A stretch of DNA of 64,000 nt from Myxococcales bacterium (GCA_045863395.1 BTVJ01000007.1:64001-128000), one strand, 5' to 3'. Counted from the stretch's first letter, positions 15,217 to 34,257 are shown. The notes: generated from the letters alone by a model not told the origin. Translations and numbers: made by a program.

Positions 15217-16542
15217 TCAGCGGGCCGCCCGCGCCAGAGTCGCGTTCGTCAGGCGGTGCATGAGGCACGTCCAGCCCGAGAACCCCAACGTGGGCGCAGG
15301 GTGGAGGGCGTGGTAGCGCAAGGAGGGGAAGCCGAGCTCCACGAAGCGGTCGGGCGGGGCGACGGCCGCCTGCAGGAAGTGGCCGTCGCCGATCAGCAGG
15401 TCCGCGTCTGCCACCCGCTCGTGCAGGCTCGTGAGCTCTGCCGCGCGCGGCTGCCACGCCACCTCGATGGGCTCCCCCAGCTCATCGGCGAGATCCCCCG
15501 CGTGGGAGGCAGCGGCCGGGCTCGCGAGCCCCACCACCTCCATGCCCACCTCGGCAGCTACCTGGAGCATGCCCCCGAGGGTCGCCGGGTCCCCGGAGTA
15601 GGCGATGCGCCGCCCCGCGAGCAGGTGGTCCACGATGCGGGCGAAGCGGGGCACGGCGAGGGCGAGCTCCCGCTCGACCAGGGCCTCCGCAGCGTCCAGG
15701 CGCCCCGTCGCCCGACCCACCGCCAGCAGCAGCCGCCGCGTGCGGGGGATTCCCAGGGGCACCGGCGCCTCCACCACCCGTGCGCCGGTGGTGGCGGCGA
15801 TGCGGCGCGCCGCTCGGAGGCCGTGGGGCAGCGAAATGAGCGTCCCGGCGTGCCGCACGGCCCCCAGGTCCTGCGACGTGCCGCCGTCGAGCCACACGGA
15901 GACCACGTCCAGGGACAGCGCCTCCAGCAGCCGCCGCAGCTCGGCCACGTTGGCGCGCTGGTCCTCCTCCAGGCGGTCCATGACGTGACCCACCACGGCG
16001 ACCCGCTCCGGCGCCGGCATGCCGCCGGACAGGTCGAGGGAGCCCGCCAGCGCGAGCAGGGTCTCCGCGTAGCCGTGGAGCCAGTCTCCCTGCAACGAGA
16101 GGCTCGGCACCTCGATGAGCTGCGCCCGGGTGTGCGGCTGGGCGTCCCGCAGGAGCTGGTCGTACTGCGTCCCGATGATCGACACGTGGGGCATGGCGCA
16201 GACCAGGATCAGCCCCGCCCGGCGGTGCTGGTCGATGCGCCGGAGGCGGTCGACCACGTCCTCGCCCCGGCTCTTGACCACCCGGTCCGCGTGGAGGAGG
16301 GTCGGGACGATGCGGTGCCGCCCGAGCACGTCGAGGAGCGTCGCCTGCCAGTCGTGCTTTCCCTGGAGCCACTGGGCCTTGCGGATCACGCAGTCAGGGC
16401 CGTCCACCATCAGCACGGCGTCGGAGATGGCGTTGACCGCCATGTAGACGCCGAGCTGATACGGGAAGCGGTACGGGACGCCGAAGGCCCCGGTCAGCGG
16501 CTGCGGAGGGGCCGCGCCGCGTCGAAGCGCAGGTGTGGTCAT
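15217..16542 (-). CDS. Nitrogenase component-1-like oxidoreductase subunit (NifK/N-like paralog)
   Basis: VDGPDCV (cf. HGPxGC), SIIGTQY, GDWLHGY, NVAELRRLL, PLGIPRT, ELGFPS...PTLGFSG; ATGA overlap with upstream gene. Confidence 0.8.
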   Translation of the reverse strand: MTTPALRRGAAPPQPLTGAFGVPYRFPYQLGVYMAVNAISDAVLMVDGPDCVIRKAQWLQGKHDWQATLLDVLGRHRIVPTLLHADRVVKSRGEDVVDRLRRIDQHRRAGLILVCAMPHVSIIGTQYDQLLRDAQPHTRAQLIEVPSLSLQGDWLHGYAETLLALAGSLDLSGGMPAPERVAVVGHVMDRLEEDQRANVAELRRLLEALSLDVVSVWLDGGTSQDLGAVRHAGTLISLPHGLRAARRIAATTGARVVEAPVPLGIPRTRRLLLAVGRATGRLDAAEALVERELALAVPRFARIVDHLLAGRRIAYSGDPATLGGMLQVAAEVGMEVVGLASPAAASHAGDLADELGEPIEVAWQPRAAELTSLHERVADADLLIGDGHFLQAAVAPPDRFVELGFPSLRYHALHPAPTLGFSGWTCLMHRLTNATLARAAR

Positions 16543-18332
16543 GGCGCCTCCCCGAGGTGCGCGGAGTAGGTGCGGAAGAAGGACATGCGGCACAGCGCGA
16601 CGAGGCGCTCCGCCGTCTGCACGGCGCCGTCCAGCCCCAGCGCGACGTCGCGCGGCGAGAAGCGCGCCTTGCCCGCCCGCCCGGGCCGCGGGTCCATGGT
16701 GAGCTCCGTGTAGATGGCGTGGGCGCGGCTCTCCCGCAGGGCCGCGTCCAGCTCCTCGGCGGTGCGGAACGCGTCGATGCGAGCATCCACCGCGGCCAGG
16801 CGCTTCGCCACCTCGCCGACGGCAGCGCCCGTGCCGTCGGGGTCGTGCACCATGAGGTCGAGGCCGAACCCCATCTCTACGAGCAGCGCCAGGAGCGGCG
16901 CGCCGGTCATGCGGCACGAGCGCTCCAGCCGGGTCAGGCCGTGGCGGTCGAGCACGAAGCCGAGCCGGTAGCGGCCGGCGCGCTCTACTGCGTGCTCCCA
17001 CCGCCCTCGCAGCCGGTCCCACGCCATGCCCCACGCGCGGTCTGCCTCCGCCTCGCGGCCCGTCGCCAGGGCGATGGCCCGGAGCCACCGCTCCGTTCCC
17101 GCCACCCCAAAGGGCACGGGCGGCGCGATGGCCGGGCCGGGCCGGGCAGCGCGGAGCGCGTCGTAGGCAGCCACGTGGTGGTCCGTGCGAAAGTAGACCT
17201 GTACGCTCGCCTCGCCGAAGTGCTCCAGCATGGTCGGGTCCACGTCCGGGAGCAGCGCGGTGCGCACCTCGATGTCCGCGTCTCGCAGCAGGGCGAGCAG
17301 CGACGCCCGGCCGGGCAGCGAGGGGAGCCCCACCACGTCGGCGCTCCCCGGCTCCCTCGGGGGCGCCTCCGTCGGCGTGCGACCCGCCGCCCACGTCTGG
17401 ATCAGCCGGACCACGGGGTTGATGCTGTTGCCCAGGTACATGACGGGGGCCGCCACCCGCTTCTGGAGGCGCCCGATGGCCCCCTCCACGTCGTCGCCGA
17501 TGACCAGCGGGGTGCAGGAGGTGCCGACGGACACCAGGTGCGGCGCCTCGCCGTCCGCGATGGCGTCCATGAGCCGGTCGAGGCGCGCCGTGCCGCCCTT
17601 GATGACATCCATGTCCCCGAGGTCCGTGAACAGGGTGCGGGAGCCGGTGTCCACGGTGATGGACGCCCCCTCGGTCTGCGTGAGCGCGAAGAACGGCAAG
17701 CCTCCGTCGTCGTTGGGGATGCTGCCGAACAGGCACTCGATCTCCGTGTGGAGCACCTGGACGTGCTTGCCGAGCAGCCGGGCGGCCCCGCTCCGCTCCA
17801 GCTCGTTGTCCGCGAAGAAGCTCACCCAGGTCTCCTCCGCGCCATAGCCGTAGACCAGCGGGCTGAGCGCCCTGCCGGCGGCGCTCCTCGGCGCGCCCGC
17901 CGCGGCCTCCACCTCCAGGGGGCGGATGGAGCCGGGATCCTGGCGGATGACCCGCTCCAGCTCGTCGTAGCAGAGGGGGGTCAAGGCCCGGGCCACCCAG
18001 TCCAACAACGCCGCCTGGCGTGTGATGAGGTCCGCGCCCCGGTAGGTCAGCGCCAGGTGGGGCGTCTCTCTGTACACCGGGGCGCGACCGCGGAGGTGGA
18101 TCCAGAACGTCGTGTCGGGCTCAGGGCCCACGGTGACGCGGATGCCGTCCTGCGGGTCGAGAGTCAGGGAGCGTACCGTCGCTCCCGAGGCGGCCGGGAA
18201 GGCGAACACGCGGGCGAACGCTCGCAGGGAGCGCCTCCCGCCGACGATGACATGGTCCGTGGGGTCGGGGGCGAGGGGCGCCGGAGTCGCTCGTGGGCGC
18301 CGCCCCTCGAGCTCCGGGAAGAGGCGGCTCAT
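16539..18332 (-). CDS. Nitrogenase component-1-like oxidoreductase subunit (NifD/E-like paralog) with N-terminal extension
   Basis: TDLGDMDVIKGG (cf. TDLxExDVIFGG), TSCTPLVIGDDV (cf. TCxxxLIGDDI), PFGVAGT; ATGA overlap with the NifH-like gene. Confidence 0.8.
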   Translation of the reverse strand: MSRLFPELEGRRPRATPAPLAPDPTDHVIVGGRRSLRAFARVFAFPAASGATVRSLTLDPQDGIRVTVGPEPDTTFWIHLRGRAPVYRETPHLALTYRGADLITRQAALLDWVARALTPLCYDELERVIRQDPGSIRPLEVEAAAGAPRSAAGRALSPLVYGYGAEETWVSFFADNELERSGAARLLGKHVQVLHTEIECLFGSIPNDDGGLPFFALTQTEGASITVDTGSRTLFTDLGDMDVIKGGTARLDRLMDAIADGEAPHLVSVGTSCTPLVIGDDVEGAIGRLQKRVAAPVMYLGNSINPVVRLIQTWAAGRTPTEAPPREPGSADVVGLPSLPGRASLLALLRDADIEVRTALLPDVDPTMLEHFGEASVQVYFRTDHHVAAYDALRAARPGPAIAPPVPFGVAGTERWLRAIALATGREAEADRAWGMAWDRLRGRWEHAVERAGRYRLGFVLDRHGLTRLERSCRMTGAPLLALLVEMGFGLDLMVHDPDGTGAAVGEVAKRLAAVDARIDAFRTAEELDAALRESRAHAIYTELTMDPRPGRAGKARFSPRDVALGLDGAVQTAERLVALCRMSFFRTYSAHLGEAP

Positions 18333-19354
18333 GCGAGCAGGTCTCCGACGCGCAGCTCGCGCGCCCGCGCCGGGAAGGCTGCCTGCAGGCGCTCCAGTGC
18401 CTCCCTTGCGGGAAGCAGGCCCTCCCGCACGGCGCGCAGCCCGGCCGCGAGCTCGTAGCGGTAGTCGTCGGAGGCCTCGACGACCTCGGGCGCCGGGACG
18501 CGGACGGGCTCAGCCGTGCGCCTCGCTTCGATGAGGGCAGGCTCGGCGAAGCGGTTGCGGGTGTACTCGTAGAAGCTCACCTCGTCGATGGGAGTGGGCG
18601 GCTGCAACGTGGCGGAGTCGATGGACAGCACGGTCGCGGCCAGCTCCCGGAAGGTGCGCGCGATGGGCGAGGCGGGCGCCATCTCGACCGCCGTGATGCG
18701 CCGGTACTCCGCCTCCCGGATCGTCGCGTCCCGCGGGATCCACCCGATGATGCGCGTCGACAGCAGCCGCGCGAACCGCTCCATGGGCGCCCGGTCCACG
18801 TCGTTGTCTCGCAGGTTGATGATGATGCCGGCGAGCACGATGCCATTGGACCCGTAGTTGACCACCGCGCGCGCGATGTTGTTGGCGGCGTAGAGGGACA
18901 TGACCTCCTCGGACGCCACGATGACCACCTTGTGCCCCACGTCCTTCTTGAGGGGGGCCGCGAAGCCGCCGCAGACCACGTCGCCCAGCACGTCGAAGAG
19001 CACCGTGTCGTAGCGCCCCTCGTCGAGGAGGTTCGCGATGCGGAACACTTCGAGCATGCGCGAGATGGCGCGCCCCCCACACCCGACGCCGGCCGCGGGC
19101 CCGCCCGCCTCCACGCAGTCCACCCCCAGCGGCGACCGCACCACCACGTCGTCGGCGGTCGCGTCCTCACGCAGCGGCTGGTCCGTGACCGCCTCGATCA
19201 TGCGGCCGCCGAGCAGCGCGACTGTGGAGTCATGCTTCGGGTCGCACCCGACGTGAAGCACCCGCTGCCCCTGCATGGCGAGCGTGGCGCTGAAGTTCGT
19301 CGCGGTGGTGGACTTGCCGATGCCCCCTTTTCCGAAGAAGACCAGACGCTCCAT
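18329..19354 (-). CDS. NifH/BchL/CfbC-family Fe-protein (nitrogenase-like reductase)
   Basis: GKGGIGKSTT, GCDPKHDST, EAGGPAAGVGCGGR, DVLGDVVCGGFA, EEVMSLYAANNI; both [4Fe-4S] Cys present. Confidence 0.95.
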   Translation of the reverse strand: MERLVFFGKGGIGKSTTATNFSATLAMQGQRVLHVGCDPKHDSTVALLGGRMIEAVTDQPLREDATADDVVVRSPLGVDCVEAGGPAAGVGCGGRAISRMLEVFRIANLLDEGRYDTVLFDVLGDVVCGGFAAPLKKDVGHKVVIVASEEVMSLYAANNIARAVVNYGSNGIVLAGIIINLRDNDVDRAPMERFARLLSTRIIGWIPRDATIREAEYRRITAVEMAPASPIARTFRELAATVLSIDSATLQPPTPIDEVSFYEYTRNRFAEPALIEARRTAEPVRVPAPEVVEASDDYRYELAAGLRAVREGLLPAREALERLQAAFPARARELRVGDLLA

Positions 19355-19566
19355 GTGTGCTCCTGGGTGGTGCTGGCACCGTAGCGGAGGATGTGAAGGG
19401 TGTCCAGGGGCGGGGCAGCGTGCGTGCATCTCACTGCGTTGGTGTGCGCTTCGCCGGGACGGTGGACACGCAGCGTAACCCCGTCCGGCGGTTCTCTGGG
19501 CGCTTGCGCCTTCGGTGGAGTACGCTCGCGTGGGGATCCCTCACGGGATGCCCGGAGGGATGGGTG

Positions 19567-22499: not shown

Positions 22500-23753
22500 T
22501 CAGCGGAAGAAGGCGGCATCGTCCGTGTCAGCCGACGCCCCACACGCCGGGCAGCGTGGGTTGCGGGCCACTCGAGCGCCGTACCAGCGCAGGATCGCCG
22601 AGCGATCAAACCGGTACCCCATGGGTGGGAGCTGGGCGTACACTCCCTCGCGCCTGTTTGCCCACACGTAGAGGTCAGCGGCCAGGTCGTCTTCCAGGGA
22701 CTCGACGGCGCCGTGCTGGCTCCGCGTCAGCTCGTGCAGGGCGAGCCGCGTGATCATCGTGCACACGGGGGCAATGTCGGCAGACAGGCCCGGCTGGATT
22801 CGAGCACCCAGTTCGCTGTCTGAGACATACTCCGGTGCCATTCGTCTCGCCTGAGCACGCTGGGAGATCTCTTCTTCACCGGACAGGAGCCCCTGCCCGA
22901 ACACGCAGGACAGGCACGGTCCCTGTCCTGGGCGCACACGCAGGACGTCTCCCCCCACTCCGCGCGAGAGGACCCGCCCGAAGAGGGCGGTGACACCCAG
23001 GTCCACGGCCGCGCGGTTGATGTTCGAGCGGCTCCGCCGATCATCCGTTGCTCCAATGACCACGTTGGCTGCGGACAGCGCTCGACTGAGGGCGCAGGGG
23101 TCATCGTTGACGTTCATCTCGACGGTCTCGACTCGAGCCCAGGGATTGCGACGCAGCAGGGCGTCTCGCACCGCCAGGGTCTTCAGTCGACCGAGGGCTT
23201 CGAGGCCGCAGATGTGCCGAGAGATGTTGGACGGCTCCAGGCGGTCGAAGTCGATGAGGACGAACCGGCCGACGCCCGCTCGGGCCAGCTCCAGCGCGAC
23301 GGCCGAGCCGCCGCTCCCGAGCCCGACGACGGCGGCGCAGCGGCCGGCGAGGAGGTCCGGGTCCGCGAGCCCCCGGTTTCGGCTCTGGATGGATTCTCGC
23401 CCGTCGACCCACTGCACGGATGCCTCCGTGCAGGACCCCTCCGAAACGAGCCATGCGCGCGCCTCAGGTCTGCGGGCGCCCGGCTCCAGGGAGATGACGA
23501 GCGCCGCAGCGCCCCCAGACGGAAACGGCAGGCGTTCGATCACACTCCCGGCTGCCGCCTCGGCGCCTCCCGGCGGGGCGACGACACAGGCGCATGGGAG
23601 CGGTTCTCCCGATGTCGAGTATGCCGGCGCCTCCGGCCATGCGTGGATGACGGACGAGTGGTCAAGTGCGCGCGCCGTCCAGCGACTGACTCCTGGACCC
23701 AGACGCAGCGTGGCGTTGCCCTGCGTCGATTCCATCCAGACAGTGGCCGTCAT
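22500..23753 (-). CDS. ThiF/E1-like adenylyltransferase
   Basis: VVGLGSGGS, DFDRLEPSNISRH, GATD, CLSC and CPAC Zn motifs; ~120-aa unassigned N-terminal region. Confidence 0.9.
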   Translation of the reverse strand: MTATVWMESTQGNATLRLGPGVSRWTARALDHSSVIHAWPEAPAYSTSGEPLPCACVVAPPGGAEAAAGSVIERLPFPSGGAAALVISLEPGARRPEARAWLVSEGSCTEASVQWVDGRESIQSRNRGLADPDLLAGRCAAVVGLGSGGSAVALELARAGVGRFVLIDFDRLEPSNISRHICGLEALGRLKTLAVRDALLRRNPWARVETVEMNVNDDPCALSRALSAANVVIGATDDRRSRSNINRAAVDLGVTALFGRVLSRGVGGDVLRVRPGQGPCLSCVFGQGLLSGEEEISQRAQARRMAPEYVSDSELGARIQPGLSADIAPVCTMITRLALHELTRSQHGAVESLEDDLAADLYVWANRREGVYAQLPPMGYRFDRSAILRWYGARVARNPRCPACGASADTDDAAFFR

Positions 23754-23956
23754 CGCGCACCTCCCCAGGCGAAGAACCCGTCCTGCGCGATCTGGTCGAC
23801 GACGGTCTCGTCGGGGCTCGGGTGTGTGGCGCCCTGGGAACGCACCACGAGCTCTCCGGTGCGGGCATCGAACACCAGCTCACCTGCGGCGCTCCCCTGG
23901 TCGGTCGTGATCTCGAGGTGGTTCAGGACATCCTGCGTCTTCTTGCTGCTCGACAT
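23750..23956 (-). CDS. Small acidic protein (68 aa), candidate E1/E2 substrate or modifier
   Basis: AGGAG RBS; stop overlaps ThiF ATG; C-terminus DQIAQDGFFAWGGAR. Confidence 0.7.
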   Translation of the reverse strand: MSSSKKTQDVLNHLEITTDQGSAAGELVFDARTGELVVRSQGATHPSPDETVVDQIAQDGFFAWGGAR

Positions 23957-23968
23957 GGTCGTGCTCCT

Positions 23969-24412
23969 CTACTGGTGCGGCAGGAAGTCGTCCATCGGCT
24001 TGCCGGTGCGGCGGTGACCTTCGAGGGCCTCGAGCCACAGTCTCACCTTCAGGAGGACGAGGTACAGGGTCTTGCGCTCGTCCCAGCGATCAGGACGGTA
24101 GTGGCACACCGCGACTCGTCCCTCGACCGGAGCGAGAGTGTGCATCGACGCGGACATGCCCCGCGCCGCGATGCTGGATCCGGCGTAGCCCAGCAGGGGA
24201 GCGGGACTTCAGATGATGGCCGTCGGCAGCGAGTGAGGCATGTCGGCCGGGATGACGACCCGGACCGTGAAGCGGTTCCCCGCGTTGGTCGTGAGGTCCC
24301 CCTGCACGAAGGTCCTACCCGTTGGATCGTACCACTGCATCGTCGGAAACATCCGGCGCAGGAGCGCCCGCTCGACTCCAAGGCGCTGCTGCTGCTCAGG
24401 GGTCCAGGCCAT
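23969..24412 (-). pseudogene. E2/UBC-fold-like protein interrupted by one in-frame TGA (24209-24211)
   Basis: QRLGVERALL...VIPADMPHSLP (cf. YPxxxP) TAII* then continues in frame SPAPLL...MHTL...VAVCHY...W...RLWL. Confidence 0.75.
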
Positions 24413-24770
24413 CGGTGTCTTCCGTCTTGCGTGGGAGCGCCCCTGCCGGAGCGTCTTGATCACAAGGACCAAGAACGTCGCCGCTCGTGTCTCTGACAAG
24501 ATCGTCTCGCTGAACTTCGTGGATCTCGCGCGCTGCGCGAATGAATGCTGACGGGTCGTCCCTCAAGACGGGGAGGCCCACCAGCGGACGCCAACCATCG
24601 TGCGTAGGCTTGTACGGGGTGACATCCTCGCCAGGGAAGCGCTCGGGGAACACGAGGCGAACGAATGTCGGGTCTCCCAAGTCCAGGACGAAGTTCCCGA
24701 TCCGGTTCGCCTCGCCTTCGTATATGACGATTCGAGCGGTCGGCGGGGTCGTGTACGTGCGTTGACTCAT
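24396..24770 (-). CDS. Hypothetical protein, possibly an internally deleted JAB/E2-like fusion
   Basis: GGAGG RBS; IVIYEGEANRIGNFVLD start, then LVFPERFP (UBC-like FPxxFP); no ETGG or HSH JAMM motif. Confidence 0.45.
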   Translation of the reverse strand: MSQRTYTTPPTARIVIYEGEANRIGNFVLDLGDPTFVRLVFPERFPGEDVTPYKPTHDGWRPLVGLPVLRDDPSAFIRAAREIHEVQRDDLVRDTSGDVLGPCDQDAPAGALPRKTEDTDGLDP

Positions 24771-24846: not shown

Positions 24847-27800
24847 CTACGCCTGCGAACGTCCTACCACCTTCTCTTCATAGGATTCGTTGCGGCTGAG
24901 TGAGTATGCAAGGGATTGGCCGCGCTGCCGTTGTGCTACGAACCACAGGCCCGGAGTGCCCGCCCTGTCCCGCTCGATCCACGCGAGGTCGCCGAGCGGG
25001 AGGCGAGACTGGCTGAACTCCAGCGCAACGTCGACGCGGCCCTCCAGGACGGTCTGCGCCGGTACGGACGTGGGGAAGGCTCTGAGTACCCAGGCCGGAC
25101 CCGTTCCTGGCAGCGCAATCAGAGTGGGCGGGGACTCGGCACAAAAGGCCGACCGGGAGAGGAGCGCCAGAAACGCCTCCGTCGCACCGTCCAGCTCCCC
25201 GGCGTGGCGAGAGAGTGGGCCGGGCGTGTGCTCGAACCGCTGAAGGGCGTCGATGGTGTCGAAGGCGAGCGCTGCAGTAGCAGGGTTGCGCAGCGGCGCC
25301 AGCAACGTCGCCAGGGGCCCCGGTTCGACGGCCGCGTCCGACAACGCATGGGCGACGCGCAGGAGAGCCATCTTCGTGGGGCGCGACAGCAGCTCGTCTC
25401 TCTGTCGGCCGGTGACCAGGTCCGCAGTGATCGCTGGGAAGACGTGCAGGCGGAGCCACGTGCTCGCTGCGAGGTCGAGGAAGGCGAGCCGCTGGCCCCA
25501 GGGACGACTCCCGCAGGTGCGGCGGTCCATCAGGGCCGCGACCATGGCGCCGAGGGGCATGGGGAGGAGGTGCGGTCTGGGGAGGGCGAACTCCAGCACC
25601 GGGCTCGTGCCAAAGGAGACGAGTGTTCCCTGCCCGGCCTCGCCCAGGGCGGTGGACTCGAGGACGAGCTCTGGGTCCTCGTTCGGGACATCGACGCGCA
25701 CATCGCGGGCCGGTTCGTAGCCCCAATAGCGCGCCCGCCCGGCGACGACCCCGCGGTACAGGCCGACAGAGCAGGGGTCTCCCGAAGGGTGGAGCGAACG
25801 AGCCACGGCGTGGAGATCGAGAGGAGACACGCCCTCGGGCCTCACGAACAGGTGGTGCTCCCCCGGGGTCGCGCTGACGCCAGATGATGGTGCCAGGTGG
25901 AGCTGCGCCCTTCGGAGGGGAGGGCCGAGGTGCCTCGTGACCTCGTCCGCTGCGAAGAGAAGCGCCGAGACGGACTCCGACGCAGGCGGTCGACCCGTCA
26001 CCGAGCCCGGGAGGTAGTAGGCGGCCCACTGCCCGACCCCGTGGAGGGCGCTGTTGCATATCCGGGCGAAGTGGAGTCCGCCAAGGCTGCTCCACGAGGT
26101 GGAGAGGTGATCCCCGATGCCCCCAAGGCGCGCGCGCAGTCTGGCTCCGGCGTCATCATTGTCGGGCGAGCTCCCTCGCGCGGAGTGACGGTTGCCGAGG
26201 GCCCGATCAAGGAGGTCCTCCATGCCCCCTATGGAAGGTCTGTGCGAGATGCTGCGAAGCCACGAGCGGATCGTCGCCGTGGCGGGTACGTTCGAGTCGC
26301 TGATCACCTCCCGGGCTGCTGCCAGCACGAGTGCCGCGGCCAGGTGCAGTGGCAGCTCTACTGCAACCTGAAGGGCCGTGAGCTGGTCCACGGGCTCGGT
26401 GGCGCTGCACAACGGGTCTGCGAGCTGCGCTAGAGGGCCTCCTGCCGCCAGACAGCGCAACGCGATGCGCGCGAGGCCGCCGCTGGCCGAGTCGAGTGGG
26501 ATCGACTCGGCCAGAGTCGAGATGTCCTCCGGGGCTCCTGTGGTCGCAAAGCGGTCCGCCAGGGCGTGCGCCCGGTCGGGGTGAGAGCAGCTCGCGGTGG
26601 CGCCGATGCGCGCCAGCGCCAGGTCCTCGTCGCCAGCCTGACGCGCATGCCAGGCGGCCAGGGCACCCCCGGCCGGCTCTCCCTGCCAGCGGGCGGCCAA
26701 CACTCCGAGGGCCCGGTGGGCCGCACGCATGCGCCCTCTTCCGGCGACGGTGGCCGCGCGGCTGCTGTCCCCCCGCGCGACCGAGGCGCCGCCTCCCGCC
26801 TGCACGAGCGTTGCCTCCGGCGGCGGGTCATCGAGCCAGTGCGCGATCTGGCGGGCGACGCTGAGCCCATGGGCGGAGGGACTCTCGGACATCTCCCCCA
26901 GCGCCTCCTCGATCTGGTCGCTGGTCACCGGTGCCTGGCAGGCTGCAAGCACGGCCAGCATCCGAAGGCGCAGCTCCTCGTGCTCGGGGGTGTTCAACCA
27001 TGACGAACGTTGTGGAGTCAGGGAGGGACCGACCATCACGCGGACGATCCTCTCTCCAAGCGCGAGCTCCACGGCGTGATACGCGTCTCGCGCTCTCTCG
27101 AGCCGGTTCTTGTGCACTTCGGCGTATACTGGCTGGCTCTTGGCGGAGGGAATCAGGAGCGCTGTGAGCTGCTGGCGTTGGGCCAGCGCTTGGAGCTTGG
27201 CCTCGACGTGGCTCGTCTCCAGCTCCTGCAAGCCCAGGTCGCGCACGCAGCCGCTGACAGCGAGGTGCGCCGGCAGCGCGAGCCCGCGGACCCGTGCGAC
27301 CATGGCCAGGAAGACCGCAAGCCCCAGCGAGCTTCCCGTCACCCAGCGTGGGTCTGATCGCCGCGGGAGCAGCTCTACTCTCAGCTCTGCGATGCGGTCA
27401 GGCGCCTGAAGCACATGTGCGGCGAGTTCGAGCGCGGCTGTGACTCCAGTGACCGTCTCGGGCTGGAGAGGGCGCCCGAGCGGAGGCTCTCCATGCCGTG
27501 CCACTCGCACCTCCAGCAGGGACGGGCAGTGGCCTCCGACCACCGGGAACGCGACGGTGTGCGCGAAACGACGATGATACCAGAGGCGCTCCATGGCGTG
27601 GGGAATGTCTGGCCTGCGTGCGGTGCGCAGCGCGGACATCACCCTGCCATGGAGGGCGCCCTGAGCGACCAGGACGCCCTCGCAGTCCATGGCCTCTTCG
27701 GCGAGCTCCTCGAGGAGGCCTGCGCGGACCTCGGGGGAGTCGATGGTCGCCGACGTGATGTGTTCGATGGCCTCGGGGATCGCCCCGCGACTGAGGTGGC

Positions 27801-27849
27801 GGCGGGCTTCCGCCCGCAGGGTCTCGACGGTCGACACAGCGCCTCTCAC
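24847..27849 (-). CDS. 1000-aa protein with N-terminal Lon-type (S16) Ser-Lys protease domain and helical C-terminal regions
   Basis: TGSSLGLA (Ser174), SG at +25, Lys at +44 (E. coli Lon: S679, T704, K722); no Walker A. Confidence 0.7.
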   Translation of the reverse strand: MRGAVSTVETLRAEARRHLSRGAIPEAIEHITSATIDSPEVRAGLLEELAEEAMDCEGVLVAQGALHGRVMSALRTARRPDIPHAMERLWYHRRFAHTVAFPVVGGHCPSLLEVRVARHGEPPLGRPLQPETVTGVTAALELAAHVLQAPDRIAELRVELLPRRSDPRWVTGSSLGLAVFLAMVARVRGLALPAHLAVSGCVRDLGLQELETSHVEAKLQALAQRQQLTALLIPSAKSQPVYAEVHKNRLERARDAYHAVELALGERIVRVMVGPSLTPQRSSWLNTPEHEELRLRMLAVLAACQAPVTSDQIEEALGEMSESPSAHGLSVARQIAHWLDDPPPEATLVQAGGGASVARGDSSRAATVAGRGRMRAAHRALGVLAARWQGEPAGGALAAWHARQAGDEDLALARIGATASCSHPDRAHALADRFATTGAPEDISTLAESIPLDSASGGLARIALRCLAAGGPLAQLADPLCSATEPVDQLTALQVAVELPLHLAAALVLAAAREVISDSNVPATATIRSWLRSISHRPSIGGMEDLLDRALGNRHSARGSSPDNDDAGARLRARLGGIGDHLSTSWSSLGGLHFARICNSALHGVGQWAAYYLPGSVTGRPPASESVSALLFAADEVTRHLGPPLRRAQLHLAPSSGVSATPGEHHLFVRPEGVSPLDLHAVARSLHPSGDPCSVGLYRGVVAGRARYWGYEPARDVRVDVPNEDPELVLESTALGEAGQGTLVSFGTSPVLEFALPRPHLLPMPLGAMVAALMDRRTCGSRPWGQRLAFLDLAASTWLRLHVFPAITADLVTGRQRDELLSRPTKMALLRVAHALSDAAVEPGPLATLLAPLRNPATAALAFDTIDALQRFEHTPGPLSRHAGELDGATEAFLALLSRSAFCAESPPTLIALPGTGPAWVLRAFPTSVPAQTVLEGRVDVALEFSQSRLPLGDLAWIERDRAGTPGLWFVAQRQRGQSLAYSLSRNESYEEKVVGRSQA

Positions 27850-29045
27850 GAGCCGACCACGGGGATGATGGCGACGGGAACTCCATCGACGAGCACGACG
27901 ACATCACCCGAGCCTGGTACCGCCGCAACGAGGACGAGCTGCGTGGGTGCCCTGATGATTGTGAGCGCTTGGAGCGACCGAGCCGAGAGCGACAGCTCCA
28001 TGTTCGGCACGACGTCGGCGACACCACCCGGCAACGCGATGCCGCTGAGGGATACCGCCAGCGCCCATGGTCGACTCTCGTCGTCGTCCCGCGCCGGTCT
28101 CCACCCGTCCTCGTCGTGAACTACCTCGCACCAAGCGAGCCGGAGACTCCCGTCGCGGAGCAGCATGAAGTGCTGTGAGTCGGCCGTCGGGTCGACGAAC
28201 GTGCGTGTCATGGCCGCAAGCACCATCTCGTAGGCGTGCCGCTCGGAGTGAATGGGTGGCTGTCTGATGGGCAGGACGACGACATTGCGGATGGGCTCAC
28301 GGCCCGTGTACTTCCTCGTGTCGACTTCGCACCCTTCGTCGGCGGGCCTGCGCGGCTCCCACGCGATGACCTCCTCCAGTCCGTCCAGGACGCCCAGGAA
28401 GTTATCCTGGGTAAGGGCGAGGGCAGGGTCTGCTTCGGCGAGGTCTGGATCGAACGAAGCCCGACACTCTGCAATCCACATCCATGCCGGGAACCAGACG
28501 CCAGGATCCTCGTTCACCCTCGCGATGGCGTCGGTGAGTGAGTCAGACCACTCCGAGGGTGGGTCCAAGCCCAGCGCCTCGAGCACTGCGGCGACCACGG
28601 TGGCGTCGTCCAGGTCGGAGAGGAGCTCCCTGGCAGCCCGGGACCGTACTCCCTCTTCAGCCACGGGATCGTCCGCGTCATCGGCGTAGGCCTGGGCAGA
28701 CTCCAGCCACGCCGCGACGCTCGGGAGATTGTCCAGCACCAGCTTCGCCAGGACGTGGCCCTCCCTCTGCATGACACTGGCGAGCGCAGTCGTGATCCCG
28801 AACGCTGGTCTCTGATCGCGAAGCGCAGGCCGGATGCGCCGCAGCGCTCCCCAGCAGGACAGAAGATCCCACGCTACCTCCACCGCATCGACCGTATCGC
28901 GCTCGACGGGCGGCAGGGCATCCCATCGCTCCAGAGCCTCCTGCGCTCGCGCCTCATAGAGCTCCGTGGCGTCGGTCCCTGGCAGCGTGACGCCGAAGTG
29001 CGCCGAGAGACCAGAGACGTCGAAGTGCTTGGTGATATCGTTCAT
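27846..29045 (-). CDS. Hypothetical acidic protein (candidate anti-sigma/protease substrate)
   Basis: 399-aa ORF coupled to the Lon-domain gene (GTGA overlap); helical N-part, YEMVLAA linker, beta-rich C-part. Confidence 0.6.
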   Translation of the reverse strand: MNDITKHFDVSGLSAHFGVTLPGTDATELYEARAQEALERWDALPPVERDTVDAVEVAWDLLSCWGALRRIRPALRDQRPAFGITTALASVMQREGHVLAKLVLDNLPSVAAWLESAQAYADDADDPVAEEGVRSRAARELLSDLDDATVVAAVLEALGLDPPSEWSDSLTDAIARVNEDPGVWFPAWMWIAECRASFDPDLAEADPALALTQDNFLGVLDGLEEVIAWEPRRPADEGCEVDTRKYTGREPIRNVVVLPIRQPPIHSERHAYEMVLAAMTRTFVDPTADSQHFMLLRDGSLRLAWCEVVHDEDGWRPARDDDESRPWALAVSLSGIALPGGVADVVPNMELSLSARSLQALTIIRAPTQLVLVAAVPGSGDVVVLVDGVPVAIIPVVGS

Positions 29046-29048
29046 GGC

Positions 29049-29852
29049 TCATTGCCTCTCTGCGCTCTGTGTGCCGCGCGTAGCTTCTCGCAAAGACCGC
29101 CAGTGTTCGAATCGGAGGCGGCTCAGAGGCGGCAGCTTCTCCTTCAGCCGGGCAGCGTGATTCCGCCTCCTGACTTGATCGAACTGCATGGCGCGCAGCG
29201 CCTGTACTGCAGGCTGAAATACGAAGTGGTAGACACGCTGATCGTTGGACCAGGATGCCTCTCGATGGGCCCGTCTGCTTGTCTCGTCCGCGCTCCGCGA
29301 GTCTCGCAATTCTCGGAGCTGTGCCCGTAGAGGCCGTGGACAGTCGCGCCACGGCCGGCTCCGGTCATCGGACCGCCCTCGCTCGATGGCCGAGACAGTG
29401 GTCTGGCCGGCGAGGAAGGCCGTGGTGAGCACGACAGACGACGCCTGACTCTCCACGATGCCGACCAGACCGTCGAGGGAAAGAAATGCTGACGTACTCC
29501 CCGACGTGACAACCCAGCCGAGCCGTAGAGCGTCGTCCAATCCGCGCTGGACGACCATGGCATACGAGTCGTAGACTTCCTGCAGAGTGGCGCCACGGGT
29601 CTCCATTGCCGCCCGCAGGAGATGCTCCCTGCGGCCATGGCTGGGCGCAGACTCGATTTCATCAAGCTCAGGCGCGATGAGGCGCCAGGCCAGCGCCTCC
29701 GGCTCGCTCAGGAGGTGGCGCGCCAGGTGCTCGACCGCCGAGCCCCAGGAAGCGAACAGGCGCACTCTCCTGCCGTCCAGCCACTCGGCCGTGGCCATGC
29801 GGAGCGACTCCAGATGCTCCGGAGGGCGATTCATTTCACCGTCGTTGGGCAT
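29049..29852 (-). CDS. Hypothetical protein (possible BECR-fold RNase-like)
   Basis: 267-aa ORF with GAGG RBS, 3-nt gaps to both neighbours; EHLARH and VVLTTAF motifs. Confidence 0.55.
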   Translation of the reverse strand: MPNDGEMNRPPEHLESLRMATAEWLDGRRVRLFASWGSAVEHLARHLLSEPEALAWRLIAPELDEIESAPSHGRREHLLRAAMETRGATLQEVYDSYAMVVQRGLDDALRLGWVVTSGSTSAFLSLDGLVGIVESQASSVVLTTAFLAGQTTVSAIERGRSDDRSRPWRDCPRPLRAQLRELRDSRSADETSRRAHREASWSNDQRVYHFVFQPAVQALRAMQFDQVRRRNHAARLKEKLPPLSRLRFEHWRSLREATRGTQSAERQ

Positions 29853-29855
29853 GGC

Positions 29856-30701
29856 TCACCTCCCTCGTTTGTGGCGGTTGCGTCCGGGGAAACGCGGAAA
29901 CAGGTCCAACAGGAGCTCCGAGAAGTGGACTTGGGGGTGGCGCGTCGCCCAGTCCGTGGCGCGACGGGTCCACTGGTAGAGCTGGTCCCTCGTGACGACG
30001 ATGAGCCGTGCGTTCGCGGCAGTCGACAGGCGCTCCACCTCCTTCGCCCGCGCATCAGCATCCGGGGGCATGTTCCTGGCGATGGCCAGTGCCGCCCATG
30101 CCTCCCACACCGCGAGCGCGGAGACCTCGACCGCGTCGCCGAGTGGCCAGGCGCCGGAGTCTCGACTCCAAGGCAGCTCCCGGCTCATCGCCTCCAGGAT
30201 CTCGTCCATCGGCACGTTCTGCTGGGCAGCCTCCACGAGGATGCGAAAGCGCGCGACGAGCAGGAGGATCGCTCGGTAGTCGACCAACTTCCCTGCGGGG
30301 CGCTTCGTGCACGCCACGCGGTCGAGCCCGGAGCACCACCTGGCGAAGCGCGGACCAATCGGCAGCGGACCCTCCGTGTCGTCCGGGTCAGGTGGCGGAG
30401 GGGTGGTTGCCTCTTTCTCGAGGCGCCTGTTCTCTGCTCTGGCCCAGTTCAAGAGGGCCTTGCGAAGGTATGCTTTCGGGAACGAGATGTCTGTTCCGGA
30501 GGCATGCTGCCCGAGGGTCCTGTTGAGGAATTGGATGCCGATGTCGTCGGAGTCGCTCCAGTACTTCGCCTTGACATGGGTGTATCGGGCGATGATGGCC
30601 CGGGCTGCGCTCCTCGCGAAGGCTTGGAGCTCCGGCAGCTCCATGTCTCCGATGCGCATCCAGCGGCTTTGGTCGTCGGGTGGGTCGATGTGGTCGCTCA
30701 T
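29856..30701 (-). CDS. Divergent ECF sigma-70-like protein
   Basis: DSDDIGIQFL...SFPKAYLRKALLNWARAENRR (region-2-like) and TRDQLYQWTRRA (region-4-like). Confidence 0.55.
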   Translation of the reverse strand: MSDHIDPPDDQSRWMRIGDMELPELQAFARSAARAIIARYTHVKAKYWSDSDDIGIQFLNRTLGQHASGTDISFPKAYLRKALLNWARAENRRLEKEATTPPPPDPDDTEGPLPIGPRFARWCSGLDRVACTKRPAGKLVDYRAILLLVARFRILVEAAQQNVPMDEILEAMSRELPWSRDSGAWPLGDAVEVSALAVWEAWAALAIARNMPPDADARAKEVERLSTAANARLIVVTRDQLYQWTRRATDWATRHPQVHFSELLLDLFPRFPGRNRHKRGR

Positions 30702-33295: not shown

Positions 33296-33398
33296 GGTTC
33301 ACCTCCATATATAGGGGCGGACCCTAGCACCGATGGCGAAGGGCGGCAATGGACTCGGACGGTGGCGCCATTGCGGGGCGCGGTCTATCATGGTCTCC

Positions 33399-33965
33399 AT
33401 GCGCGCAGAGATGAATGCCGACAAGGTTCACGCGGTGCTGAAGGCGCTCGGCAGGGAGGCTCGTGGGCCCGGCAGGGTCTACCTGACAGGGGGGACCACC
33501 GCCGTACTCGAGGGCTGGCGGCAGGCGACCATCGACGCAGACCTCAAGCTGGACCCGGAGCCCGCGGGGATCTTTGCCGCCATCCGCCGGGTCAAGGATG
33601 AGCTCGACGTGAACGTGGAGCTGGCGTCTCCCGACGACTTCATCCCCCCCCTCCCGGGCTGGCGGGATCGCAGCCGCTTCATCGCCCAACATGGGCCGGT
33701 GCAGTTCTTCCACTACGACCTCTATGCCCAGGCGCTGGCCAAGGTCGAGCGAGGGCACGACCGGGATCTGGCGGACGTGCGGGAGATGCTCCAGCGCGGG
33801 CTCGTCGAGGCAGGGGAGCTCCGCCGCCTGTTCGCGGAAATCGAGCCGGACCTGCTCCGCTATCCCGCAGTGGATCCGGACACCTTCCGCCGCACGCTGG
33901 GTGAGCTGCTGGCATCGACCGAAGACGGGAAAGCCGCCGCTCCCGCCGGGGGCCGCGATGAGTGA
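33399..33965 (+). CDS. DUF6036-like nucleotidyltransferase family protein
   Basis: YLTGGTTAVLEGWRQATIDADL (GG...TxDxD NTase signature); KVERGHDRDLAD. Confidence 0.8.
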   Translation: MRAEMNADKVHAVLKALGREARGPGRVYLTGGTTAVLEGWRQATIDADLKLDPEPAGIFAAIRRVKDELDVNVELASPDDFIPPLPGWRDRSRFIAQHGPVQFFHYDLYAQALAKVERGHDRDLADVREMLQRGLVEAGELRRLFAEIEPDLLRYPAVDPDTFRRTLGELLASTEDGKAAAPAGGRDE

Positions 33966-34257
33966 CTGGACCGGCCTTCCGGGCGCGGACCTCGTGACGG
34001 AGGGCCTGCGGGACCTGGAGGCCGGGCGGGAGTCCGTCGTGGCGCTGCTCGTGGCCGTGGCGACGACCAGGCTCCGGGGCCTCGGGGTCCCGGTGCCCGC
34101 GCACGGGTACACCGAGGCCGAGCTGTTGTTGTACCGCGCCCTGTGCCGTGAGGTCGGAGATGCTGCCTATGGGCGCTACAACTCGCTCCTGGGTCGCCTC
34201 ATCAGCTTCGTCCACGCCCTGGACCGTGAGGAGGGGCGGCTCAGGGCGGGGCGCTGA
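33958..34257 (+). CDS. Small partner protein of the nucleotidyltransferase (possible TA pair)
   Basis: 99-aa helical ORF overlapping the NTase end; LPGADLV...RYNSLLGRLISF. Confidence 0.65.
   Translation: MSDWTGLPGADLVTEGLRDLEAGRESVVALLVAVATTRLRGLGVPVPAHGYTEAELLLYRALCREVGDAAYGRYNSLLGRLISFVHALDREEGRLRAGR

Follow-up and report, generated by a model that had tools for sequence, protein, structure and literature searches.

A predicted protease-controlled sigma factor switch in a Myxococcales bacterium and its relationship to type III CRISPR Lon-CARF cassettes

The subject of this analysis is a cluster of four minus-strand genes (positions 24847–30701) in a 64,000 nucleotide stretch of DNA from a Myxococcales bacterium (GCA_045863395.1, BTVJ01000007.1:64001-128000), referred to below as the window, with all positions counted from its first letter. 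The genes encode an extracytoplasmic function (ECF)-type sigma-like protein (29856–30701, 281 aa), a basic protein here called X (29049–29852, 267 aa, pI 9.8), an acidic predicted anti-sigma factor (27846–29045, 399 aa, pI 4.4, 66 Asp plus Glu versus 32 Lys plus Arg) and a Lon-like protease (24847–27849, 1000 aa). We judge it somewhat probable that they form a protease-controlled sigma switch that follows the logic of the CalpL-CalpT-CalpS (CalpLTS) system with the sensor swapped. The sigma, X and anti-sigma genes are a conserved module, which usually takes the form of a Lon-CARF effector cassette of type III CRISPR. In the window, the protease appears to have been exchanged for another Lon-like domain fused to a C-terminal region of about 730 aa, and the C-terminal domain of the substrate, the predicted anti-sigma, has changed in step.

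The conserved module and its protease partners

The sizes and junctions of the four tightly packed reading frames reported in an initial annotation, which was made from the sequence alone, were verified: the first two junctions both read TGA-GCC-ATG, and a GTGA overlap precedes the protease gene (the start of which is residue 5 in public gene calls). No frame is interrupted, the four are coupled in translation, and none of the four proteins gave a useful match in Pfam, PADLOC, NCBIfam or PHROGs. A chance arrangement is disfavoured because homologs exist for each gene and the gene order recurs.

Searches located the module in 2 of 400 other members of the phylum and in 5 of the 401 genomes that were sampled around that of a planctomycete; six further loci came from a pattern scan, and inspection of those genomes gave one more. 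A Lon-CARF gene adjoins the module in 12 of the 13 other loci and the 13th holds a CARF remnant, so that the co-occurrence of homologs on which the earlier proposal of a cascade depended is borne out. The sigma gene is present in ten and the X gene in nine of these loci, two of which end at contig edges; X is absent from L018, and L016 and L017 have non-matching genes in its place. Seven of the Lon-CARF genes were used to build a search profile, which the other five matched at E 1e-21 to 1e-95. All seven partners tested matched PADLOC CARF_m2--CARF_LON (PDLC01981) at E 7e-39 or better, and the profile of these canonical partners matches Lon and Csm6 structures. Pfam-confirmed cas genes (cas10, RAMP, cas1, cas6 or Csm6-HEPN) lie nearby in 9 of the 13 loci; the remaining four comprise one with a cas10-like start (by eye), one that is too short, and L012 and L016, which have none in the fetched stretch and come from genomes that do hold cas10. 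One genome (G402) carries two decaying copies of the module, L013 (9926–10983) with a split anti-sigma gene and L018 (8409–11211) with X missing and only the CARF remnant left.

The cascade had been labelled CRISPR-independent. For the family that label does not hold, as it is usually a type III Lon-CARF cassette; for the copy in the window the label is unproven, since the genome under study holds three loci with a Cas10 palm domain. It was correct that no cas gene is recognisable at the locus: none was recognised by eye in the list of open reading frames (ORFs) of the window, searches of the genome with family models place none there, and the nearest RAMP genes form a cluster on the same contig about 75 kb from the module. 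Given the usual association with CRISPR and the Cas10 and RAMP loci of this genome, missing neighbouring cas genes do not show independence from cyclic oligoadenylate (cOA). In all, contigs C78, C2, C42 and C7 (at 9–15 kb) of this genome (G000) hold at least three type III loci with a Cas10 palm, a fourth RAMP cluster and three cas1 genes.

Although the same three genes flank CARF_m2 proteases elsewhere, the window protease differs from these in its Lon subgroup (motif GSSLG), in having no CARF domain and in its 730-aa C-terminal region. Assignment of the window protease to CARF_m2 was considered and rejected, since neither it nor its homolog P0009 matches the PADLOC CARF_m2 model, hhalign against the CARF-Lon family is not significant, and a score of −3.5 bits was obtained with the CARF profile of the canonical partners. 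The 399-aa proteins are modular, the N-domain following the type of sigma and the C-domain the type of protease. Window-type N-domains score 96–115 bits on the model of CARF-linked N-domains and window-type C-domains −0.9 to 3.2 bits on the model of CARF-Lon-linked C-domains; the latter domains themselves, scored by leave-one-out, reach 13.8–70 bits in 11 of 12 cases. In a quick tree built on 41 N-domains, of which 10 come from the loci and 31 from family members picked by hand, the four window-type proteins form one group (SH-aLRT 91) among the CARF-linked ones, with many unsettled forks, and this placement fits a derived swap. That the module descends from a Lon-CARF cassette of type III CRISPR is shown by the neighbourhoods, the direction of change being taken from this weakly supported tree.

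The four proteins

Alignment of the 281-aa protein with a sigma family derived from the loci gave an hhalign probability of 92.7 (E 4e-7). Five of the seven sigma homologs tested match Pfam Sigma70_r2 (E 1e-5 to 1e-3), and the family profile matches ECF sigma structures (E 2e-4), where PDB coverage is limited to profile positions 7–128. The window protein itself had no match in the Pfam search. The earlier label of ECF-sigma-like is therefore retained, and a sigma factor with an N-terminal region 2 is supported at the level of the family. Because the C-terminal half includes a conserved helix, TxxxWxQWxxRA, and the homolog in L016 is shorter, this family-specific half probably contains a region 4 with an insertion.

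With a profile built from two sequences, 103 relatives of the 399-aa protein were retrieved (at 50 % clustering), mostly of 340–410 aa, all of which align to its N-terminal 230 residues. AlphaFold2 was run on an alignment of 79 sequences, in which 78 relatives of nearly full length accompany the query. The resulting model has a confident helical bundle at residues about 10–230 (predicted local distance difference test, pLDDT, about 89–98 over residues 11–230) and is all-helical over residues 5–229, followed by a disordered linker (238–292) and a weaker, beta C-terminal domain. The helical N-domain (residues 1–236; 28338–29045) is the predicted anti-sigma domain, and the beta-rich C-domain (27846–28178), the type of which tracks that of the protease, is a putative protease-docking domain. 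The protein has no clear structural relative (a profile of the 79 sequences retrieves nothing from the PDB at E 10) and no convincing transmembrane helix (top 19-residue hydropathy 1.8–1.9).

When the sigma protein was modelled with residues 1–236, the complex scored 0.83 over three runs versus 0.00 for the best of three controls. Of 157 solved pairs, 116 attain the mark applied to this score, as do 2 of the 215 mismatched ones, a calibration that is rough here, where our own alignments were used; solved structures also include many complexes of an ECF sigma with its anti-sigma. The runs share at least 83 % of their contacts, with partner pLDDT of at least 86. Contacts on sigma fall at 31–44, 76–95 (a region-2 helix) and 236–250 (the putative region-4 recognition helix), and a pattern spread over these segments is as expected for an anti-sigma factor. 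From this model, the 399-aa protein looks like the anti-sigma of the neighbouring sigma, in agreement with the role first proposed for it.

The linker carries a recurrent motif. The pattern [LMAVIF]AA occurs in the linkers of 66 of 79 homologs versus a mean of 32 and a maximum of 45 in 1000 shuffles; counts in other parts of the protein were 54 (the N-domain, probably inflated by an FLAA visible in the alignment), 35 and 21. In 48 of 69 cases the motif lies 7–26 residues ahead of a conserved Trp in the C-domain, and intervals shifted upstream and downstream gave 14–15 and 2–6, respectively. The window linker reads EMVLAA278-M and those of its two closest relatives LLAA and LMAA, and an LAA-type motif is preserved in P0002, P0007 and P0011. 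As the hydrophobic-Ala-Ala sequence resembles the degron bared when CalpL cuts CalpT, a cut after A278 is predicted, which would make L276-A277-A278 (28212–28220) both the Lon cut site and a C-degron. In the CARF-Lon loci L016 and L017 the substrate C-domain and the AA motif are kept, the N-domain is different and other sigma or X genes adjoin; the L017 protease additionally matches Csx16.

The Lon-like (S16) domain of the protease, which is without an AAA+ module, spans residues about 95–270 (27040–27567). The codons of its proposed dyad are as first described, TCG at 27328–27330 (S174, within GSSLG) and AAG at 27196–27198 (K218). Their spacing fits an S16 dyad (about 41–44 residues), and they are in register with the catalytic positions of the LonB protease 1xhk, the sole match (E 0.35) of a two-sequence protease profile to PDB sequences. 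Both residues are kept in P0009, the one full-length homolog found in the searches, at 43 % identity. The ten structure rows from the Atlas all belong to clusters that bear Lon_C; each falls below the bar set there for naming. The original identification of a Lon-type protease is consequently upheld in part: the dyad, the Atlas rows and the 1xhk register support it, and formal thresholds are not reached. The stated lack of AAA+ and SAVED domains, to which CARF can be added, agrees with Pfam, PADLOC, NCBIfam and PHROGs, none of which gave a match; for SAVED there was also no match among PDB sequences, though a very remote version may escape sequence search. The nearest relative of the Lon domain in the same genome (E 0.0075) is L021 (G000:C32:44017-45747), an AAA-less Lon-like protein that shares the GSSLG motif and is fused to TPR repeats.

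In the place of CARF, the protease has the region of about 730 aa (24847–27027), a candidate sensor or regulator. Its only homolog is that in P0009 (43 % identical); it has no family matches, and no copy was found with this query among 390 other genomes of the phylum. STAND-like and HEPN-like resemblances are unsupported.

Protein X shares 28–33 % identity with seven homologs that occupy the same position, and H42, H46, E52, W56, T144 and an Arg are invariant. It has no match in Pfam, PDB or PHROGs, and database searches give no support to the label of toxin in the initial annotation. X would be a co-regulated partner.

Proposed mechanism and alternatives

At rest, the ECF-like sigma would be clamped by the helical N-domain of the 399-aa protein. 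Upon activation, the Lon-like domain (S174/K218) would cut the disordered linker, most likely after L276-A277-A278, and the new -LAA end would direct the N-domain to ClpXP, as with CalpT, where cutting by CalpL exposes PEDTLQLAA, a ClpXP-type degron, and RseA, where a VAA degron for ClpXP is exposed (bioRxiv 2024.05.08.593097). Genes resembling clpP and clpX (read by eye) are on the same contig as the module. The freed sigma would then start a defence transcription programme. As CARF is replaced by the 730-aa region, the trigger is probably read there, and probably not as cyclic tetra-adenylate (cA4) bound to CARF; hence, the switch probably answers a trigger other than the CRISPR alarm signal. 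A more specific version, in which a rewired CRISPR-derived module reads a phage or stress cue directly through Lon and the 730-aa sensor without cOA, cuts after LAA278 and launches transcriptional defence, is a reasonable possibility that falls somewhat short of probable. Were it true, such cascades would be plug-and-play, the N-domain picking the sigma and the C-domain the protease. The sensor swap would free this transcriptional arm of defence from its tie to CRISPR signalling, and a new sensor region would be defined.

The resemblance to CalpLTS, as far as the available part of its description goes (bioRxiv 2024.05.08.593097), lies in an AAA-less Lon with a Ser-Lys dyad behind a short N-terminal domain, a soluble two-domain anti-sigma with a linker that is cut (predicted here) and an ECF-like sigma; binding of the anti-sigma to the neighbouring sigma is common to both, here in silico. 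Unlike CalpL, the window protease has no recognisable SAVED domain, and unlike CalpLTS the module includes the extra conserved gene X and has no adjacent cas genes. The N-domain of the anti-sigma is an all-helical bundle, while CalpT consists of a MazF-like N-domain plus DUF2080. Type III-E Craspase likewise has four parts, a protease, a large helical anti-sigma substrate, a conserved unassigned protein and an ECF sigma (PMC10028731, in the part available), namely Csx29, Csx30, Csx31 and CASP-sigma, but Csx29 is a caspase-family protease activated by Cas7-11. No likeness to Csx30 or Csx31 was found by PDB sequence or fold, in searches made without a Csx31 profile and against structures that may cover these proteins only in fragments; a Csx30 fragment ranked 44 (E 2.7) in Foldseek. 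RseA-sigmaE differs in that RseA spans the membrane and responds to a periplasmic trigger. CARF-Lon fusions have been published as predictions (PMC9704534, PMC11229360, PMC12669027, bioRxiv 2023.06.23.546230), and the available parts of these sources do not mention this module. The review among them (PMC9704534), in its available part, speculates that the targets are host proteins or toxins and names no sigma module. Our literature searches gave no description of the module, though Makarova 2020, in its text or supplements, may name these neighbouring genes. If the proposed switch is correct, CalpLTS/Craspase logic extends to a third, unrelated anti-sigma family, and CARF-Lon effectors now have a likely substrate and cut site, for which the review offers guesses.

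Several observations weigh against a swapped-sensor switch. The protease has no Pfam Lon_C match, its single-sequence model does not show a Lon fold, the fold assignment passes no formal threshold, and the non-significant hhalign with the CARF-Lon family counts here too. The AA motif is lacking in 13 of 79 linkers, in proteins that are Ala-rich. L007, which is CARF-Lon-linked, has a C-domain that scores only 3.9 bits on the CARF-type model, and the pairing of a swapped protease with the trio is directly observed in one lineage, that of the window. Among the listed strain differences in the sigma gene, five of seven alter a residue, and together with the broken E2 gene adjacent to the module (see below) this may mean that the island is drifting.

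A first alternative would keep the protease as an effector of CRISPR that works in trans, its 730-aa region being an unrecognised cOA sensor or binding an activated type III complex in the way that Csx29 docks on Cas7-11. This we consider unlikely, even though three Cas10-palm loci occur in the genome along with RAMP clusters, the CARF-Lon copies L012 and L016 likewise show no cas genes in the fetched stretch while their genomes contain cas10, and non-CARF sensors exist (PMC11229360, in its available part). No CARF or SAVED signal and no cas gene in the window were recognised. The GC content at third codon positions is 0.74–0.83 in the four genes and 0.70–0.85 across the whole island, compared to 0.92 in the upstream gene and a genome median of 0.91 (a reference biased upward by the ORF filter), which suggests that the island was acquired separately.

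It is also conceivable that the sigma/anti-sigma pair is real and that the main output is X, released or activated as a growth-arresting effector, possibly an RNase. Two His, a Glu, a Thr and an Arg that do not vary, the position of a basic protein beside an acidic one and a strand ending in TAF, reminiscent of RelE-like RNases, favour this, but X has no family or structure match, is missing in L018 and is replaced in L016 and L017, and we regard such a role as quite improbable. Marginally less credible still is a decaying or chance assembly, in which the 1000-aa protein is not active, or does not belong with the trio, on an island that is degenerating. The stops in the adjacent E2 gene, the very sparse distribution and a low-confidence single-sequence model of the protease (pLDDT 49) that did not recover the Lon fold would fit this reading. 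Against it stand the uninterrupted and coupled frames, a dyad that survives at 43 % overall identity, a substrate C-domain altered in step with the protease, and the retention of the LAA-type motif by P0002, P0007 and P0011. The cluster DNA is present in sludge, wastewater and aquatic metagenome runs from several studies, and in two further DNA runs contigs cover the four genes piecewise.

Neighbouring genes in the window

Downstream of the module on the same strand lies an E2-like/peptide/ThiF cassette (22500–24770, minus), which the initial annotation does not mention and which is probably separate and decaying. It consists of a 124-aa ORF, an E2-like gene, a 68-aa peptide (ending DGFFAWGGAR) and a ThiF/E1 gene, the last three within 22500–24412, with matches to ThiF (E 4e-33) and PADLOC E2 (E 0.0075). 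The E2-like gene has an in-frame TGA at codon 68, and contigs from three of the four runs compared have a second stop at codon 27. Cassettes with a JAB-like gene, E2, an acidic peptide and E1 are found in G072 and G162 (in the latter the peptide appears fused to E1), and in these tblastn gave no match to the four module proteins. The cassette would be of a ubiquitin-like or peptide-modifying type without ubiquitin, broken here, and the E2 stops and its occurrence elsewhere without the module make it unlikely as an input to the module.

Farther away, a NifH/BchL-like gene and a nitrogenase component-1-like gene (16539–19429, minus) form a pair beside a two-component system. On the plus strand, at 33333–34257, a 210-aa ORF and an overlapping short frame, for which scans with minus-strand references gave no Pfam match, are, by eye, a candidate nucleotidyltransferase-type pair.

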